The notes under the pieces: generated by a model
What the model was told of the DNA's origin: nothing
Databases searched by the model: none
Seen by the model: only the letters and a program-made list of their open reading frames with translations
Shown here: positions 5,969 through 24,938 of the stretch, piece after piece
How positions within the stretch are numbered: position 1 is the first letter of the stretch
Layout: each line of letters begins with the position of its first letter
Virus record (IMG/VR): IMGVR_UViG_2713896908_000011
Coordinates: 1 to 32,977 of that record
Direction: 5' to 3' (one strand)
Length of the DNA: 32,977 nucleotides
From: a virus
Lineage: Duplodnaviria; Heunggongvirae; Uroviricota; Caudoviricetes
Program-made: the position numbers and the translations under genes

Positions 5969-6284
5969 TGAGTTTTACCGGCACTTCTTCTGCACTGGTT
6001 CCGGCATCTGCCCAGACAACCCCGACCAGCGGATCAGAGCCGCTGTTAGTCAGCTGAACTTTTCCGGACTTCAGATAAACCTTCTTACCCGTTTTCATGT
6101 CATCCGTTTTCAGTTTAGGCAGGATAAACACACCTTCGGTCATGCCGTCGCCTGTTTCACCCTGTGGAATATCGGTCAGCGCCACCGCAAAAACATCACC
6201 CACCTGCACCAGATCTCCGCTGCTGATGGCAGCACTGGCAACAATCGCCACCGTTTTTCCTTCTTCTACAAAATTCTTTGCCAT
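5961..6284 (-). CDS. small head protein, DUF2190-like (putative capsid decoration/cement or head completion)
   Basis: Start set at the internal Met (MAKNFVEEGKTVAIVASAAISSGDLVQVGDVF...) preceded by GGAGACAG. Lies between the capsid gene and the connector. Family assignment is from memory. Confidence 0.55.
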   Translation of the reverse strand: MAKNFVEEGKTVAIVASAAISSGDLVQVGDVFAVALTDIPQGETGDGMTEGVFILPKLKTDDMKTGKKVYLKSGKVQLTNSGSDPLVGVVWADAGTSAEEVPVKLNV

Positions 6285-8342: not shown

Positions 8343-9851
8343 TTATTCTTCGGACTGGTCGTCGGTGTGCTGCGGCTCCTGTCGTTTCGTTGCGGCACTG
8401 CTGCCTCCTTTATCACTGGCCGGATCGGTATCAAATACCAGATCCAGCTTGCGGTTTTCATCAATTTCGGCCTTGCGCCGACGTTTGACATCATCCGGAT
8501 TACGACCACCAGCACGTACCCAGTCTGATTCTGTCGCCGCTCCACCACGAATCTGGATTTTCCAGGCCTCAGCCTCCTTAACAGGGTCAATCCACGGCAT
8601 CACTGGTCCGGAATACACCGCGGTATACAGTGAAGAACGGTCAAGATCGCGGGGTAGCCTGATAACACCGGATGCCACAGCCTGTTTCAGCCAGGCACGA
8701 TACATCGGGCGGGTGACGGCACCAATAAACCAGTCCTGCAGGATCAGGTAGCCATCAGTAGACTCAACCAGTTCCTGACGCTGGGCGCTGTAAGTGCCGT
8801 TATAGTTGCGTGCCGTACTGGAAAAACTCAGACGACTGCCCGCCGCCACGGCACGCAACTGACCATTACGAAAAGTTTCAAGGTTAGGATTGGGACGATC
8901 CGACTTCACCATTCCGATTTCTTCGCCGGGTTTCAGATCGTCGTAAATAATGCCTGGCTGAATGGTAAGCTCGCGTTCATTCTCCTTGCTGTCATTACCA
9001 TCCGTTTCATAGCTCTGCCCGTCGCCTTTCCGGATGTACATCCCCAGAGCAGCGGCGATCCTTGCTGCAGTCAGCTCAGAATCTTCATACTCTTTCAGGG
9101 CGCTGAGGCGGATCAGCACACCGGACAATAAAGACGTCCCGCGCATCTGGTGCAGACGGCGAACAAATTTAAGATGCAGCATTCGCTCTGCATCCACTTC
9201 TTTGGTTTCCATCTGCCGTCCGGATACGGGACGGCTTTTATACACCAGATATTTTTCGGGACGCCCCCAGTCATCAACAAACACGCCCTGATTCAGCCTG
9301 TTGCTCTCATCACTGGTCATGGGAATAAAGTCCGGCTCGAGCGCCTCCAGCCAGAAATGAACACCGGCAGAAGGCGTCAGGCTGTTTATGCGCCCGGAAA
9401 CCATCTGGGCAAACACCTCACCATCGCGCAGCCAGGTACGCAGCATCAGACGTTCCAGCATCGGACGGGTAAACTGCCCGGTGACTTCCGGACTGACAGA
9501 CCATTCACTCCATCGGGTGCGTATCTCCGCTGCCAGATCACGGGCAATGGCCCCATTGCGTAATACCGGATGTGGCTCGACAATAATCCCGTTTTTCCCC
9601 ACCACCCGTTCTTCCAGCTTGTCAAATACACCAATGACCAGATCGTGGTTGTTATCAAGGTAACGGGCCTGCTCACGTAACGACACGGCCCCGTACTGGC
9701 TTAACTGGTCGGCAGTTCGGTTCTCCCGTCGGGCTTTGTGTGTCCGCGTCGTTTTTACGGCCTCATAAGCCTGGATCACCGCACGGGAACGCAGCCTTGC
9801 CGCTTTCCATCCTGGTGAAAAAACGCCAATCACATCATCAAGAATTGCCAT
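8343..9851 (-). CDS. portal protein
   Basis: About 500 aa between the gpW-like gene and the protease-capsid gene. Start set at Met (MAILDDVIGVF...) whose ATG overlaps the gpW-like stop by 1 nt; the track start at 9923 is the alternative. Confidence 0.85.
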   Translation of the reverse strand: MAILDDVIGVFSPGWKAARLRSRAVIQAYEAVKTTRTHKARRENRTADQLSQYGAVSLREQARYLDNNHDLVIGVFDKLEERVVGKNGIIVEPHPVLRNGAIARDLAAEIRTRWSEWSVSPEVTGQFTRPMLERLMLRTWLRDGEVFAQMVSGRINSLTPSAGVHFWLEALEPDFIPMTSDESNRLNQGVFVDDWGRPEKYLVYKSRPVSGRQMETKEVDAERMLHLKFVRRLHQMRGTSLLSGVLIRLSALKEYEDSELTAARIAAALGMYIRKGDGQSYETDGNDSKENERELTIQPGIIYDDLKPGEEIGMVKSDRPNPNLETFRNGQLRAVAAGSRLSFSSTARNYNGTYSAQRQELVESTDGYLILQDWFIGAVTRPMYRAWLKQAVASGVIRLPRDLDRSSLYTAVYSGPVMPWIDPVKEAEAWKIQIRGGAATESDWVRAGGRNPDDVKRRRKAEIDENRKLDLVFDTDPASDKGGSSAATKRQEPQHTDDQSEE

Positions 9852-14420: not shown

Positions 14421-14902
14421 AAACAGACTTCACGCTCAATCTCACGGCGAGTCATCAGGCCTTTCCATTGCTTACCGCCAGCATATGTCCAGCGACGTAA
14501 CTGGTCACATGCCCCTTTGATATCACCCTGGTTTATTTTGCGAAGAAGAGTCGATGTTCTGAAATTGCCTGCACCCACATTATAGACGAACGAGTAAAGA
14601 GCGCCGCGCGTTGTTTCCGGTATATCAACTTTGATGTACGGGTTAATTTGCCTGGCGACCGTGGCAAGGTCTTTATTCAGGAGGGCTTTGCATTCTGCTT
14701 CGGTATACGTTTTACCGAGCATAATGTCTTTTCCGGTGTGCCCGTAACATACAGTCCATACGCCAACGATATCTTTATATGGTATGTAGCTGACACCTTC
14801 CAGACCATCGTCACCACTCGGACCAGTGATGAGCACAGACGCTATGGCAACAGCCCCACCACCAATAGCAGCTGCAACAGCCTTGCGTAATGATGGCGAC
14901 AT
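14405..14902 (-). CDS. R: SAR endolysin (phage 21 R21-type lysozyme)
   Basis: N-terminal Gly/Ala-rich weakly hydrophobic segment [20 protein letters not shown] typical of a signal-anchor-release domain, followed by a T4-lysozyme-like domain. Directly follows a pinholin gene (ATGA overlap at 14902). Confidence 0.85.
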
Positions 14903-15593: not shown

Positions 15594-15790
15594 GATTGTG
15601 GTGCTTTTTGTGGTAGTTACCCACTTACGCACTTTGTATTGCTATGCCAGCAGTTAGCTTCTACTGTAAAACTATTCATGCAGCAAACCTGCACTTCACC
15701 ACAAAATGGGATTCAATACCCACAACTCTATCTGCATCTCTACTCAGGCATCAGCCTTCTTCGTTATCGTATACAGACAAGCTATGAATT

Positions 15791-16006
15791 TTAATCAGTA
15801 ATAATGACATTTGCTGCTGCAGGACCTTTAGCACCACTCTCTACAGAGAAGGTAACCTTTTGGCCTTCAAATAAGGTTCGATAATTATCATTCTGAATTG
15901 CAGAAAAATGCACAAACACATCTTTACTACCATCAACAGGAGAAATAAAGCCAAAACCTTTATCAGCGTTAAACCATTTTACTAAACCAGTCATTTTATT
16001 TGACAT
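15791..16006 (-). CDS. cspB: cold-shock protein, CspA family (CspB-like)
   Basis: [53 protein letters not shown]... carries the RNP1 (KGFGFI) and RNP2 (VFVHF) motifs and matches E. coli CspB (a Qin prophage gene) as I recall it. AAGGAA Shine-Dalgarno is present. Confidence 0.9.
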
Positions 16007-16170
16007 TCTACATTCCTTAACTTGAGCCTTTCGGCATAAATGATTTGTATAACAGAAACGACTTCGTACTTAATTGGAGAGACTCAAAGAAGGAATAAGT
16101 GAATAACACCTGAAATGAGAACTGCTTTAGTAAACTACTTCGTATATCGTCTGTTCTTCAAACCGACGCT
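16007..16170 (-). promoter_or_regulatory. long 5' leader of the csp gene with cold-box-like element
   Basis: CspA-family mRNAs have ~160-nt structured leaders. The minus-strand sequence here contains GAAGAACAGACGAUAUACGAAG, reminiscent of the cspA cold box (UGACGUACAGA). Boundaries are approximate. Confidence 0.4.
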
Positions 16171-16374: not shown

Positions 16375-17127
16375 TTATCTTGTCACTTTTCTCAACAGTG
16401 CTTCTGCATATGCTTCTTCCTGCCAGCACTTTGTAACCAGTTTATCAATAACATCAGCATACCCCTTGTACCACTGATAATCCGTCAGGTCCGGTACCAG
16501 TTTCTGGACATGATGCCGCGCCAGTGTGGTTGGTAAACGGCTAAACCGATTTCCATTGCAACGCCCACAAATCTTATAAACCGGCGTGCCATGAAGCCGG
16601 GTTCTTTTTTCATCCAGGACAATACCTTTACCCTTACACCCTCTGCACGCTGTGCTGACTTCTCCCTTACCATGGCAATGCTGACATAGTTCCTTCACCC
16701 ACTCTTCCTTGATAACAGATTCCCCGCTTCTGGAGTGTTTCACCACTTCGCGCAATACATTATGAAATCCAGTACCAGCACAATGCTCACAGCGAGCCTT
16801 ACTTGCCGCAGACCTGGAATAATCAGCAAAGGCAAAATTCACAAGGTAAGGGATGATCTGTAACCGGGTTTCTTCACTCAATTTATTCAATGTCGGGTTA
16901 TCCAGTGCCATCGCGTAATTGAGCAGACCTTCGATCGCAAACTGAGGATCCTGAACACCAACTTTTGCCAGGAATAAGGCAAAACCCAGTGGTGCTTTCG
17001 ACTGCACCATCCCCTGCGCAGCCATCACATCTGTAATTGTTAAACCACCCGAGCCTGTCGCCGGTGCGTCATCACTCAATTTTGGAGATTTTGGGGAGTA
17101 ATATTTTGGTAAGGCTTCAAGGTTCAT
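16375..17127 (-). CDS. Q: late-gene antitermination protein Q (phage 21/82-type family)
   Basis: 250 aa with multiple CxxC pairs (CEHCAGTG, CQHCHGKG, CRGCKGKG, CGRCNG) typical of zinc-binding Q proteins; positioned between the early/replication genes and the lysis genes. Confidence 0.8.
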   Translation of the reverse strand: MNLEALPKYYSPKSPKLSDDAPATGSGGLTITDVMAAQGMVQSKAPLGFALFLAKVGVQDPQFAIEGLLNYAMALDNPTLNKLSEETRLQIIPYLVNFAFADYSRSAASKARCEHCAGTGFHNVLREVVKHSRSGESVIKEEWVKELCQHCHGKGEVSTACRGCKGKGIVLDEKRTRLHGTPVYKICGRCNGNRFSRLPTTLARHHVQKLVPDLTDYQWYKGYADVIDKLVTKCWQEEAYAEALLRKVTR

Positions 17128-21526: not shown

Positions 21527-21865
21527 CTATTTCCCTGAATTTACGACGAAACTGTTCGAGCGGACTGAAGCATTCATGCTCATAGCCTTCGCGGAGGTAG
21601 ATAACCCGTTGTGTTTCCGGTTCCCAACGAATGACTCTGACGGGTACTCCGTAGTGATCTTTGAACCAGCGGTTAACTTGTCGCAAAGGACTGTCTCCTT
21701 TTGTCGGTTGAAATCACCCACAGCCCACTCTGCAAAGCTGTGGGTTACAATTTCCCTGTCACCTGGTACATTCACTGCATAGCAATACTCCACCTTCGCT
21801 TTTCCACCCGGTACAGGAAGCGCAATCAGTTGCGAGCGACGGTAGTGTGTTGTTAAACTGTTCAT
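21527..21865 (-). CDS. hypothetical protein, translationally coupled to the CII-like gene
   Basis: 112-aa ORF whose ATG overlaps the upstream stop (ATGA); no recognisable motif. The plus-strand ORF 21516..21782 is judged antisense. Confidence 0.45.
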
Positions 21866-22470
21866 GCGTTAGTTTCTCCACAGTCACGACACGCCACGGC
21901 GCCCGGAGCTGCACACTCGCGGGCGTCATTACTTTCTGAAATGCAAAAAATTTTGTAGACCAGTGCAGCATGCTCCTGCAGCTTCGAAATTGAGAGATAC
22001 AGCTCGTCGTTGATTGCTGTCTTCTCATGCGGTTCCACCACACCGTCTTCGATTGCCGAACGAATCTGTTTGGAATAACTGCCAATCTGTTCAATGACTT
22101 CCAGCAGGCGCTGGTTAATATCGGCGTTGTCCACATCCTCGACGTCAGGAAGAGACACAAAGACGCCATTTGCCGACTGCGCCACAGCGTCAGCAATGAA
22201 GTGAGTTCCACCAGCACGTTGCAAAATCATTGCCCATCCCAGCGGGAAAATCTGATCGCCATCGGCACGAAGGCGGTTAAATAATGCGCTCTCTGTTACA
22301 TCCAGCCAGTCAGCTGCTTCAGCGTAACCACCCGGCAACTTTGCGATAGTTTTTCTGACAGCTTTCACGTACCACTCAGGCTGTTTTTCTACTTTCCAGT
22401 GATGCTTACCCACGGTTAGCCTCATCGTTCTGTGGTTTCTGTTAATCGATTTATCCATTAGATTTTTCAT
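21862..22470 (-). CDS. CII-like/YdaT-like early regulatory protein
   Basis: First gene after cro in the rightward operon. Start is uncertain (candidate ATGs at 22470 or 22458; the track start at 22527 is a GTG overlapping cro). Family placement (Phage_CP76-type CII versus YdaT-like) is not resolved. Confidence 0.45.
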
Positions 22471-22651
22471 AAAGCTCAGGTTTAAATGGCAACCGTCCGC
22501 AAGTTCTATATGCAGCTTCTGCTGCACGTCCTTTTGGAATTAACTGGCCCGGACGGTTTCGCCACTGATAAACGGCTTCAGTTGTTATGCCGAAAAAAGC
22601 AGCAACTTTCTCAATACTGCCGAAGTAGCTTTCGATATCGTCAGTTGTCAT
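22451..22651 (-). CDS. cro: Cro-like/YdaS-like HTH repressor
   Basis: 66 aa, divergent from the cI-like gene across a 97-bp intergenic region; ...EKVAAFFGITTEAVYQWRNRPGQLIP... fits the Cro/YdaS-type HTH. Confidence 0.7.
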   Translation of the reverse strand: MTTDDIESYFGSIEKVAAFFGITTEAVYQWRNRPGQLIPKGRAAEAAYRTCGRLPFKPELYEKSNG

Positions 22652-22748: not shown

Positions 22749-23375
22749 ATGGAAACGGTTGGTCAGCGTATAAAAGCTCTGAGAAGAGTTACCAGAACGT
22801 CCCAGAAAGAATTGGGTAAATTTTGTGGAGTAAGCGACGTTGCTGTGGGGTACTGGGAGAAAGACATCAATACCCCTGGTGGGGAGGCACTTTCGAAATT
22901 AGCGAAGTTCTTCAATACGTCAATAGATTACATTCTTTATGGTGCTGAGTTTGAAGGCAAACTCGTCACAAACATGCGCAGAGTTCCTGTAATATCGTGG
23001 GTTCAGGCTGGGCAGTTTACTGAGTGCAGGGCAGCAGAAGTGTTTAGTGAAGTGGACAAGTGGGTAGATACATCATTAAAGATTGGTGATAACTCATTTG
23101 CATTAGAGGTTAAAGGTGACTCCATGACTAACCCTAATGGCCTCCCAACAATACCAGAAGGCGCAACAGTGATTGTAGATCCAGATGCAGAACCTCGTCA
23201 TGGAAAAATAGTCATCGCTCGACTTGATGGAACAAACGAAGCTACAGTAAAAAAATTAGTCATCGATGGCCCTCAAAAGTTTTTAGTGCCATTAAATCCT
23301 CGGTATCCCAACATCCCTATCAATGGTAATTGCCTTATCATTGGTGTAGTCAAAGGAGTTCAATACGAACTCTAA
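22749..23375 (+). CDS. cI: CI-like repressor (N-terminal XRE HTH, C-terminal S24 LexA-like peptidase)
   Basis: N-terminal HTH (QRIKALRRVTRTSQKELGKFCGVSDVAVGYWEKD), candidate Ala-Gly cleavage site (VQAGQF), catalytic Ser in GDSM and Lys in ATVKKL. Confidence 0.9.
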   Translation: METVGQRIKALRRVTRTSQKELGKFCGVSDVAVGYWEKDINTPGGEALSKLAKFFNTSIDYILYGAEFEGKLVTNMRRVPVISWVQAGQFTECRAAEVFSEVDKWVDTSLKIGDNSFALEVKGDSMTNPNGLPTIPEGATVIVDPDAEPRHGKIVIARLDGTNEATVKKLVIDGPQKFLVPLNPRYPNIPINGNCLIIGVVKGVQYEL

Positions 23376-23540
23376 GACCTCTCTTCTCTAACTAAGGCAC
23401 CAAGCTAAGAAAAGTTTGGTGTTTTCTCTTGCCATAACAACTAAGTTAAGTTAGATTTTATATCAAAGATAACAAACAGGCAGGACGCCCACGAAGTAGC
23501 CGCCAGGGGCATATGAAGTCCTGGATGATTCGTTAGTAAC

Positions 23541-23564
23541 AAAAAAAGCGTCGTACAGGACGCT
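23541..23564. terminator. candidate bidirectional terminator between cI and the convergent moron gene
   Basis: Hairpin AGCGTC-GTACAG-GACGCT preceded by A7 on the plus strand (U7 after the hairpin on the minus transcript) and followed by a weaker T-rich tract on the plus strand. Confidence 0.5.
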
Positions 23565-23588
23565 TCGCTCTTTAACAATCTGGATGAC

Positions 23589-24104
23589 TTATCGGTCAGA
23601 TTTAAACTGGGGTTCTGGCAAAACTGGTGGTGTTGAATCTTCAAATCGTAACCAGTGTTCCCAAATATCATGTGTTCGTAATTTCTGTAGACTAATTTGA
23701 CGCGATGCAATTGCGGAATTAGTGGTTACTCCACCAGAAGCATCGCCCTCTACTGACGTTGAGGCTTTTTCTACTAATTCTGACCAAGCTTCACTTTCTG
23801 CGTCAAAAGCTTCTGTTAAGTCCCGCAGACGCTGTGGCTCATTTTTATGGTCTTCCTTCAAACGATTCAAAGCGGCAGTTGAATACTTATTCCTGACCCA
23901 TTCGATCTGAGTTAGCTGAATCCGCAGACAATTATCTATATCAATGGTTGTGTTCTGAGGCATGTCAGAACAAGAAATATAAAAGGTCACAACTCCACCG
24001 TTCAAACTACTGCCCGGTTCGATTAAAACATTAGAGGAATTTGACGTAGTCGGCAATATTAATGCTAACGACAAAACCACATGTTTAACAGAAATCGCAC
24101 CCAT
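23589..24104 (-). CDS. hypothetical exported or membrane-anchored protein (moron between cI and the early-left operon)
   Basis: 171 aa with AGAGGG Shine-Dalgarno. N-terminus MGAISVKHVVLSLALILPTTS resembles a signal peptide or signal anchor. Convergent with cI and followed by a terminator; this is the slot that rexAB/sieB-type exclusion genes occupy in lambdoid phages. Confidence 0.6.
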   Translation of the reverse strand: MGAISVKHVVLSLALILPTTSNSSNVLIEPGSSLNGGVVTFYISCSDMPQNTTIDIDNCLRIQLTQIEWVRNKYSTAALNRLKEDHKNEPQRLRDLTEAFDAESEAWSELVEKASTSVEGDASGGVTTNSAIASRQISLQKLRTHDIWEHWLRFEDSTPPVLPEPQFKSDR

Positions 24105-24430
24105 TTAAATTGCCCTCTAAAGAACAAGGTCATCCAGATTAACCGAAACCTGGTTATTGGGGAATAACCAAATCCACCTCGCCTGATGTGGCTAAAAGCA
24201 GGCACATAACAGCTAAGTATTTTCAACCAGAGAGAATCCTTAGCGTTGTGGTGAATGCGCAGGCTGATGCGCGAAAGACATTGCAGCTATTGCGGAAAAG
24301 AGCTGTTCGGCGGGGCAATTAAATGCCTGTGAGAGTCTGAAATAACCGCAAGCCGGAGATCAGCACCGGTCACCACAACAGCCACTGCTTTGGCGGTACC
24401 AGTTTGTACACTTACTTCCGGCTGGTACCG

Positions 24431-24535
24431 CTCTTTTTACAAAACAGAGAAGAGCATCACCGGACGACGGGCTCATAACCCAATCCATCCGGGCGGCTGC
24501 CACCGCAGGTGTTCTTCTCTGTTTTGTGGAGAAAC
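24431..24535 (+). ncRNA. candidate structured RNA element in the early-left leader (long inverted repeat)
   Basis: Perfect 15-bp inverted repeat ACAAAACAGAGAAGA (24439..24453) / TCTTCTCTGTTTTGT (24513..24527), extendable with G-U pairs, enclosing a GC-rich 59-nt segment; located ~40 nt upstream of the first early-left gene. Confidence 0.35.
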
Positions 24536-24575
24536 TAACCGACCTTGCAGGGTCGATATGATGAGGAGCAGCAAA

Positions 24576-24938
24576 ATGGCTAGCGAACGCAGTACTGATG
24601 TGCAGGCATTTATCGGGGAGCTGGACGGCGGCGTATTTGAAACCAAAATCGGCGCAGTTCTCAGTGAAGTCGCTTCCGGTGTGATGAACACGAAAACCAA
24701 AGGTAAGGTCTCGCTCAACCTGGAAATCGAACCGTTTGATGAGAACCGTGTGAAAATCAAACACAAACTCTCATATGTTCGCCCGACTAACCGCGGGAAA
24801 ATTTCCGAAGAAGACACCACCGAAACGCCGATGTATGTCAATCGCGGTGGTCGCCTGACTATTCTGCAGGAAGACCAGGGACAATTACTGACTCTTGCCG
24901 GTGAACCTGACGGAAAACTCCGCGCAGCAGGTCATTAA
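24576..24938 (+). CDS. YfdP-like hypothetical protein
   Basis: ATG with GAGGAG Shine-Dalgarno 7 nt upstream; 120 aa (MASERSTDVQAFIGELDGG...). Precedes a YfdQ-like gene as in the CPS-53 prophage gene order I recall. The track ORF start at 24390 is rejected. Confidence 0.55.
   Translation: MASERSTDVQAFIGELDGGVFETKIGAVLSEVASGVMNTKTKGKVSLNLEIEPFDENRVKIKHKLSYVRPTNRGKISEEDTTETPMYVNRGGRLTILQEDQGQLLTLAGEPDGKLRAAGH

Follow-up and report, generated by a model that had tools for sequence, protein, structure and literature searches.

A conserved three-way-junction RNA behind the early-left leader terminator of a lambdoid prophage, with an arm resembling the anticodon arm of CAU tRNAs

What is the long inverted repeat that lies just upstream of the first early-left gene in the lambdoid prophage of IMG/VR record IMGVR_UViG_2713896908_000011? 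An earlier note, made from the sequence alone, had described a perfect 15-bp repeat around a GC-rich 59-nt core, predicted a large RNA stem-loop, and proposed antitermination of the HK022 put type, a processing or attenuator element, or a DNA-level site such as a miniature inverted-repeat element. The whole stretch of 32,977 nucleotides (the window) was analysed computationally. We conclude that the repeat belongs to an element that is very likely a functional structured RNA of the plus strand, a three-way junction closed by the repeat. The explanation that we prefer as a whole, and to which we assign a probability of roughly 0.45, is a portable RNA module that would be expressed by antiterminated transcription, excised at its long stem and act as a mimic of a tRNA arm.

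The two arms, ACAAAACAGAGAAGA (24439-24453) and TCTTCTCTGTTTTGT (24513-24527), are perfectly complementary over 15 bp. The window contains exactly one perfect inverted repeat of at least 15 bp with a loop of at most 100 nt, and such a repeat was found in none of 200 first-order Markov resamples, indicating that it is not a chance occurrence. The G+C content of the 59 nt between the arms is 66%, compared with 48.7% for the whole window. The large stable structure predicted for the early-left leader was borne out by RNAfold, which gave -55.6 kcal/mol for 24420-24545 (z = -6.7); none of 200 shuffled sequences was as stable. The plus strand folds into a three-way junction (24434-24532) with helices P1, P2 and P3, made up of the following parts.

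24434..24458, plus strand: 5' strand of P1, including the left arm 24439-24453 and beginning within the U-tract of the leader terminator
24460..24492, plus strand: P2, the invariant arm, CCGGA-C-GA-C-GGG-CUCAUAA-CCC-AA-UC-CA-UCCGG
24493..24506, plus strand: P3, a variable hairpin, GCGG-CUGCCA-CCGC in the window and 14 to about 44 nt long in relatives
24508..24532, plus strand: 3' strand of P1, including the right arm 24513-24527, defined by the fold and by comparison
24528..24535, plus strand: purine-rich conserved 3' flank GGAGAAAC, whose GGAGA pairs with the U-tract

P1 is a contiguous helix of 25 bp that includes G-U pairs (24434-24458 with 24508-24532), and the 15-bp repeat is its middle. 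Extension of the stem by G-U pairs, as the earlier note had it, was thus confirmed, whereas its separate pairing of CACC with GGTG was not: covariation backs the contiguous register, and the CC of CACC is part of the base of the P2 arm. The ATG of the first early-left gene (24576) is 44 nt from the end of P1 and 49 nt from the 15-bp repeat.

Covariation was measured in a set of 26 distinct copies of the pL (leader) type; as control, the 3' partners were slid by 1-3 columns. In the proposed structure 96.8% of the cells were paired, as opposed to 41-53% in the slid controls, and nine pairs had changes on both sides. The covariation score was 0.187 versus 0.095 in shuffles, and not one of 500 shuffles reached the observed value. 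For P1, in which 20 pairs were scored (24439-24458 with 24508-24527), 96% of the cells were paired and six pairs had double changes. P2, scored across all types of the element (20 sequences), had 98.8% of its cells paired, against 23-48% in slid controls, and double changes in five of its eight pairs. As far as comparison of sequences can tell, compensatory changes across phages support all three helices.

The alignment also distinguishes between the strands. A U-G pair was retained in 25 of the 26 pL-type sequences, and further G-U pairs were present; the covariance model scored 118.9 bits on the plus strand and 42.9 bits on the minus strand. Both asymmetries point to an RNA read on the plus strand, in the direction of pL. 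They also bear on the possibility that the repeat works as DNA (a cruciform, a protein-binding palindrome or a miniature inverted-repeat transposable element) or is a functionless, decayed tRNA pseudogene. Such explanations could appeal to the long perfect palindrome, to the similarity to tRNA described below and to the tRNA genes that adjoin the element in some phages, but the retained U-G pair would be an A-C mismatch on the other strand, and P2 and P3 covary inside what would be a mere loop. Furthermore, different genera share a strongly conserved core, the element keeps one place in the leader, and no second copy was found in the window at up to three mismatches. No duplicated flanks were seen at the repeat ends in the sequences read, although no formal test was made. 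We regard a DNA-level role or a dead tRNA as close to untenable, and the miniature inverted-repeat element was abandoned.

Nor does the conservation reflect a protein. The loop of P3 is 6, 7, 8 or 14 nt long in relatives, a variation not in steps of three that rules out a coding constraint; two minus-strand open reading frames (ORFs) over the element (24360-24764 and 24473-24841) were rejected on the same ground. Across phages P1 and P3 drift and P2 is invariant in sequence.

The region is kept in SfV, SfII, SfIV, mEp460, cdtI, the Stx2a/Stx2c phages and ST64B, as well as in other Salmonella, Klebsiella, Citrobacter and Pantoea phages, and a pattern scan of viral contigs gave at least 120 matching stretches. 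The core formed by P2 and P3 was found behind a pL-leader terminator in E. coli, Shigella, Salmonella, Citrobacter, Enterobacter, Kosakonia, Mixta and Buttiauxella. In a pattern scan of one genome per species, most of the 120 matches listed were chance matches in unrelated phyla; the true matches among those listed were in E. coli, Citrobacter, Enterobacter, Kosakonia, Mixta and Buttiauxella and, with one further case, in a record titled Chryseobacterium, all others being attributed to Enterobacterales. The terminator together with the junction (24393-24575 of the window) was present in 2775 of 5426 complete E. coli genomes, in up to five copies per genome and at ten places on plasmids, and no annotated feature lay beneath any of the matches listed. 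In the CPS-53 prophage of E. coli K-12 yfdP was retained and the element lost. The conservation in related phages that the earlier note had proposed as a check was therefore found, compensatory changes included. All copies examined were in a phage leader or in the setting of a phage RNA gene.

The invariant part of the element is P2, with the constant pattern GAC-NNN-CUCAUAA-NNN-AAUCCA: an interrupted 10-bp arm with a 7-nt loop, flanked by invariant GAC and AAUCCA. The loop CUCAUAA is the anticodon loop common to the CAU tRNAs, namely the initiator tRNA encoded by metZ, the elongator tRNA-Met and tRNA-Ile2. In the window copy, 14 contiguous nucleotides (CGGGCUCAUAACCC) are identical to positions 28-41 of E. 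coli metZ, that is, to its anticodon stem-loop. Beneath the loop is a 3-bp stem whose two sides change together: GGG/CCC is replaced in variants by AGG/CCU or AGC/GCU. A tRNA cloverleaf has D and T arms; the element has neither a D arm nor a T loop, and ARAGORN in its standard mode found no tRNA in the window.

The P2/P3 core was found in four settings across phages. In the first, that of the window, it follows the terminator of a pL leader and is itself followed by GGAGAAAC, a small hairpin and the first gene, which varies; in the pL-type copies examined the GGAGA of GGAGAAAC is invariant and the following three bases are mostly AAC. In the second, in Klebsiella phages, a tRNA array that follows Q and a tR'-like terminator has the core as its final unit. 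These copies have tRNA-like spacing and a 6-bp acceptor-like P1 (G1-C72, G2-C71 and C3-G70), measure 70-71 nt overall and usually end in (A/G)CCA, or in GACA in one variant; an acceptor-like stem with (A/G)CCA was found in them only. In the third setting (Pantoea PA-1 and contigs L254, L257, L260 and L266) the core lies directly 5' of a GUUGUGG domain that resembles the published small RNA sRNA-17. The order in the window is the opposite, the sRNA-17-like domain being upstream of the terminator and the junction after it. In the fourth, in contig L270, the core is on its own; it has a P1 of 14 bp, and intrinsic terminators come after it, as in a small RNA (sRNA) gene. In nearly every setting examined the core either follows the first terminator of an operon under antitermination or has a terminator of its own. 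One contig, L257, carries the long post-terminator stem with the same flanks and an A+U-rich tip instead of P2 and P3. The long stem is thus a scaffold and P2/P3 a separable payload, which is placed in different hosts by recombination.

Three observations accompanied this comparison. In L257 a partial tRNA-like stretch within the GUUGUGG domain (about 9300-9390) combines an anticodon-arm-like hairpin with a canonical T arm (GGTTCGATTCC) and the 3' strand of an acceptor, which suggests that leader domains accumulate, or derive from, tRNA sequence. Late leaders of phages from Klebsiella (L132, L260) and Pantoea (L127) also contain the sRNA-17-like domain, where its order relative to the junction is reversed. 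In L101 a leader-type copy (6042-6144) and a copy of the tRNA-array type (14615-14681) lie on the same strand 8.5 kb apart, with a NinG and Q module between them; L101 may be a rearranged or tandem prophage.

How the RNA could be made depends on its place in the early-left transcript. The stretch from 24105 to 24575 is non-coding, and RNAfold resolved 24196-24580 (z = -6.0) into five leader domains, the fourth being the three-way junction. The features of this transcript outside the junction are as follows.

23429..23457, plus strand: candidate pL promoter from a promoter scan, TTGCCA, a 17-nt spacer and TAGATT
24212..24244, plus strand: hairpin CUAAG...CUUAG, defined by the fold and by comparison with L260 and L132, with the conserved CACAUAACAG 5' of it
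24245..24379, plus strand: sRNA-17-like domain, closed in the fold by pairing of GUUGUGGUG (24246-24254) with CACCACAAC (24371-24379)
24392..24438, plus strand: intrinsic terminator with a 13-bp stem (24392-24404/24420-24432) followed by C and U5 (24434-24438)
24540..24555, plus strand: small G+C-rich hairpin CGACCUUGCAGGGUCG from the fold; relatives retain a hairpin here, with different sequences
24576..24938, plus strand: first early-left ORF, yfdP-like, 120 amino acids, phrog_204, function unknown, with Shine-Dalgarno sequence GAGGAG at 24563-24568

The candidate pL overlaps operator-like AACTAAGTT repeats, which are also present at oR; its identity as pL is inferred from these sequence features and from its position relative to the conserved RNA downstream (described below), a spacing that recurs behind many different promoters. 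The hairpin at 24212-24244 occupies the place where phages of variant E hold the three-way junction. Inside the sRNA-17-like domain, the 5' strand is followed at once by a hairpin, and a second hairpin ends right before the 3' strand, so that the layout resembles a cloverleaf. The terminator (-21.2 kcal/mol, z = -4.2) forms the 3' end of sRNA-17. A hairpin with a U-tract was found 5' of every pL-type copy examined, the U-tract being the start of P1, whereas the gene downstream of the element differs between carrier phages.

Because P1 begins in the U-tract of the terminator, the junction would be made only by polymerases that read through 24392-24438, and we propose that this happens in antiterminated pL transcription during lytic growth, with leak from the sRNA-17 promoter as an additional source. 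RNase III would then cut the long duplex of P1, freeing an RNA of roughly 70 nt and detaching the yfdP-like mRNA from its leader; tRNA-processing enzymes would free the copies that lie in tRNA arrays. For an RNase III site a near-perfect duplex of at least 20 bp is expected; 25 bp are predicted here, and the 20 scored pairs are backed by comparison. The freed RNA could mimic the anticodon arm of tRNA(CAU) through P2, titrating or decoying a protein that reads this arm, such as an anticodon nuclease or toxin, MetRS or TilS. Support decreases along this chain, from lytic read-through expression over RNase III release to anticodon-arm mimicry. Between an autonomous RNA module and an antiterminator acting in cis we lean slightly towards the former; the step of mimicry or decoy is doubtful.

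A simpler explanation would stop at the second step. The element could be a purely cis-acting processing or insulator hairpin of the lambda N-leader type, cleavage of P1 uncoupling the mRNA of the first gene and P2/P3 having no function. The lambda N leader is an established RNase III site, and the near-perfect duplex of about 25 bp, situated 44 nt 5' of a start codon, would suit such a role, as would the central mismatch that recurs in 14 of the 26 sequences (alignment columns 18/118), the conserved GGAGAAAC flank and following hairpin, and the long stem without a core in L257. However, this leaves unexplained why P2 is invariant while P1 and P3 drift, and the core recurs in late leaders and tRNA arrays on a P1 of 5-6 bp, which RNase III could not cut. 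We therefore consider a hairpin of this kind unlikely as the whole explanation, although processing remains a plausible fate of so long a stem. The attenuator, with which the earlier note had coupled it, was dropped. The stem is not followed by a U-run on either strand (the plus strand continues with GUGGAGAAACUAACC, the minus strand with UAAAAAGAGCGG), and a terminator scan listed nothing for it, the real terminator being the separate hairpin at 24392-24438.

In its most specific form, our proposal would make P2 a phage-borne decoy of tRNA(CAU) (initiator, Met or Ile2), produced early in lytic growth from antiterminated leaders and neutralising a host factor. The factor might be a VapC-type or other anticodon nuclease acting in abortive infection; alternatively MetRS or TilS might be titrated. 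We rate this version as quite unlikely. If it were true, prophages in about half of the E. coli genomes would carry an RNA-only counter-defence. Several results count against the proposal as a whole. The only published leader RNA, sRNA-17, stops just short of the junction, and conservation of the GGAGAAAC flank and of the hairpin before the first gene hints at an additional role in cis. The partners named for P2 are candidates only. Where a tRNA has its CCA end, the window copy has a 25-bp P1 and no NCCA. Mimicry specific to the initiator tRNA, suggested by GGG/CCC, was weakened by the finding that this stem is not family-wide, and the loop, CUCAUAA in nearly all copies, is CUCAUUA or CUCAUUC in a few. 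ARAGORN called no tRNA at the element in its relaxed and mitochondrial modes, a single relaxed-mode call on the minus strand of the window copy being taken as spurious, and on L132 the Rfam tRNA model matched the four neighbouring tRNAs and not the element.

The loops could also act by base pairing. An sRNA or sponge that uses CUCAUAA and AAUCCA to pair with phage or host RNA, for example with a translation start of the form UGGAUU...UUAUGAG, would account for invariant single-stranded loops on a variable scaffold; the stand-alone copy in L270, with terminators of its own, resembles an sRNA gene, and the element and the sRNA-17-like domain go together, whichever comes first. Against this, the window contained no second complementary site, and duplexes predicted between P2 and the sRNA-17-like domain were inconsistent between phages. 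Pairing of P2 with either that domain or the conserved RNA next to pL (described below) was accordingly rejected, as duplex prediction and inspection gave no consistent or covarying interaction. We consider a pairing function very unlikely.

The published work on this leader concerns sRNA-17, an RNA of 193 nt from an mEp460-like prophage of E. coli K1 RS218 (PMC7719688). The published primers place it at 24245-24437 of the window. It thus comes from the same leader, ends at the U-tract abutting the inverted repeat, and excludes both the repeat and the three-way junction, which is not described in that paper. The text of the paper gives the negative strand, which conflicts with the RACE primers and the Northern probe used there, since these point to the sense strand of yfdP. 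Replacement of part of sRNA-17 by a cassette raised yfdP expression about 100-fold (PMC7719688). The position of sRNA-17 in the leader provides a context for this phenotype: the de-repression of yfdP may be an effect in cis, such as read-through from the cassette. A search of main texts found no paper with the core sequence, the sRNA-17 study being the only report found for the leader, and the element itself was not found in the papers searched. Two other reports were set aside: the Pas sRNA preprint deals with other, late-region sRNAs, and the P2 Old paper with tRNA-Thr and not with CAU tRNAs.

The window is a lambdoid prophage in reverse orientation with its late genes on the minus strand. 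Apart from the leader, the following genes define its regulatory region.

16375-17127, minus strand: Q-like antiterminator gene
21862-22527, minus strand: cII-like gene
22451-22651, minus strand: Cro-like gene
22749-23375, plus strand: cI-like repressor gene
23589-24104, minus strand: moron of 171 amino acids, phrog_7681, function unknown, between cI and the early-left leader

The yfdP-like ORF is followed by DUF2303/yfdQ-like and yfdR-like genes. The moron is antisense to pL transcription and has a weak, sub-threshold LprI-like Pfam match. The stretch 23545-23578 holds its bidirectional terminator hairpin and, next on the plus strand, a perfect boxA consensus, CGCTCTTTAACAA (23566-23578). Hairpin and boxA-like sequence move with the moron cassette, are absent from SfV and ST64B, and may shield pL transcripts from termination at this place. 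In the late-operon leader, downstream of the Q-like gene, a cspA 5'-UTR (untranslated region) thermoregulator (15775-16167, minus strand; Rfam RF01766, 155.9 bits) accompanies a cold-shock-protein gene. This was the only match when Rfam 15 was run on the whole window at the gathering score, and a permissive scan of 24050-24650 gave just two chance-level matches (E about 5), so that the Rfam search brought no relevant family for the element.

The absence of a recognisable N gene, on which the idea of antitermination had rested, was confirmed for the six ORFs scanned on that side of cI (the first five of the early-left operon, plus the minus-strand moron that separates it from cI), none of which is N-like. 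A lambda-type nut system, with a conserved boxA and boxB and an N-like protein, was not found either; no N-like family occurred among the ORFs scanned. The boxA-like CGCUCUUUUUA (24429-24439) was rejected as a nut site, since it consists of the 3' stem and U-tract of the terminator, and it is not conserved, being CGUCCUUUUUA in SfV and GCCGACCUUUUUA in ST64B. A reading of GGCGGTACCAG as an RfaH ops site was rejected by eye: it is the 5' stem of the terminator and differs in relatives.

A more suitable candidate for RNA-based antitermination was found directly after the promoter.

23466..23537, plus strand: pL-proximal conserved structured RNA with a closing helix and two hairpins, a small GGC/GCC one and one that covaries

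This element of about 70 nt, composed of GCAGGACGCCCACGAAGUAGCCGCC, the covarying hairpin and GAUGAUUCG, lies 10-15 nt downstream of the pL promoters of many immunity types, among them those of SfV, ST64B, ZF40, Yersinia YeP and mEp237. RNAalifold found 15 pairs, five of them with compensatory changes. It precedes the leader terminator and corresponds in position to putL. It has no BLAST similarity to put, and the BLAST relatives of putL included no phages that carry it. Judged by its position, it is a better candidate than the inverted repeat for an N-independent RNA antiterminator.

The finding matters because an RNA supported by covariation has gone unannotated in prophages carried by about half of the complete E. 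coli genomes, and likewise in phages of eight or more further enterobacterial genera. The leader to which it belongs is modular and non-coding, composed of the pL-proximal RNA, the sRNA-17 domain, the terminator and the three-way junction, and takes the place of lambda N/nut in a large set of lambdoid phages to which SfV, ST64B, mEp460, cdtI and the Stx2c phages belong. The roles of these RNAs would reveal how early-left transcription is controlled in N-less lambdoid phages, and whether phages employ mimics of tRNA arms as regulators or for counter-defence.

Among known systems, the RNase III site of the lambda N leader is likewise an extended duplex close in front of the first pL gene. Phage tRNA clusters are known to contain small stable RNAs, such as the species 1 and 2 RNAs of T4, and the c4 RNA of P1 is processed by RNase P; like the array copies of the element, these are non-tRNA RNAs within phage tRNA arrays. 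Neither the lambda site nor the cluster RNAs are related to the element in sequence, and Rfam, which includes c4, gave no match. The element is a new RNA family, absent from Rfam.

The remaining comparison is with put, by analogy to which the element would be a processive antiterminator in cis, the nascent RNA binding the polymerase and rendering it resistant to early-left terminators. The absence of an N-like ORF among the six scanned and the position in the leader of a long operon would fit, and the two copies in L101, one in an early-left leader and one downstream of Q, recall putL/putR or nutL/nutR. However, the covariance model of the element found no match at E<=1 in the HK022 immunity region that contains putL (L001), and the phages recovered by BLAST with putL (HK022, HK75, O276, phiEt88, UPF_BP1, CobraSix, S9-5, HK639 and PdC23) include no carriers of the element. 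The element lies after the leader terminator and not before it. It also occurs after tR' in Q-dependent late operons, where an additional antiterminator would be redundant, within tRNA arrays, and as a stand-alone unit with terminators 3', and 23466-23537 is better placed for the function. The put-like role proposed in the earlier note is therefore very unlikely for the inverted repeat, and an autonomous module remains the reading that we favour. The two kinds of RNA differ in architecture too. In HK022, put is a tandem pair of stem-loops beginning at +3 of the pL transcript, and it binds the zinc-binding domain of beta'; it is about 70 nt long and V-shaped, with no closing stem (PMC9378689), whereas the element is an enclosed three-way junction with a closing helix of 20-25 bp. 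Read-through of terminators in cis is what put brings about, and mutations in that zinc-binding domain block it. Put is found just after the promoter, the element about 970 nt downstream of the candidate pL, starting in a terminator U-tract. What the element shares with putL and putR of HK022, and with their relatives in HK75, HK639 and phiEt88, is that both are structured RNAs of about 70-100 nt in the early leader of an N-less lambdoid phage, and that put acts as a sense-strand RNA, as the element would.

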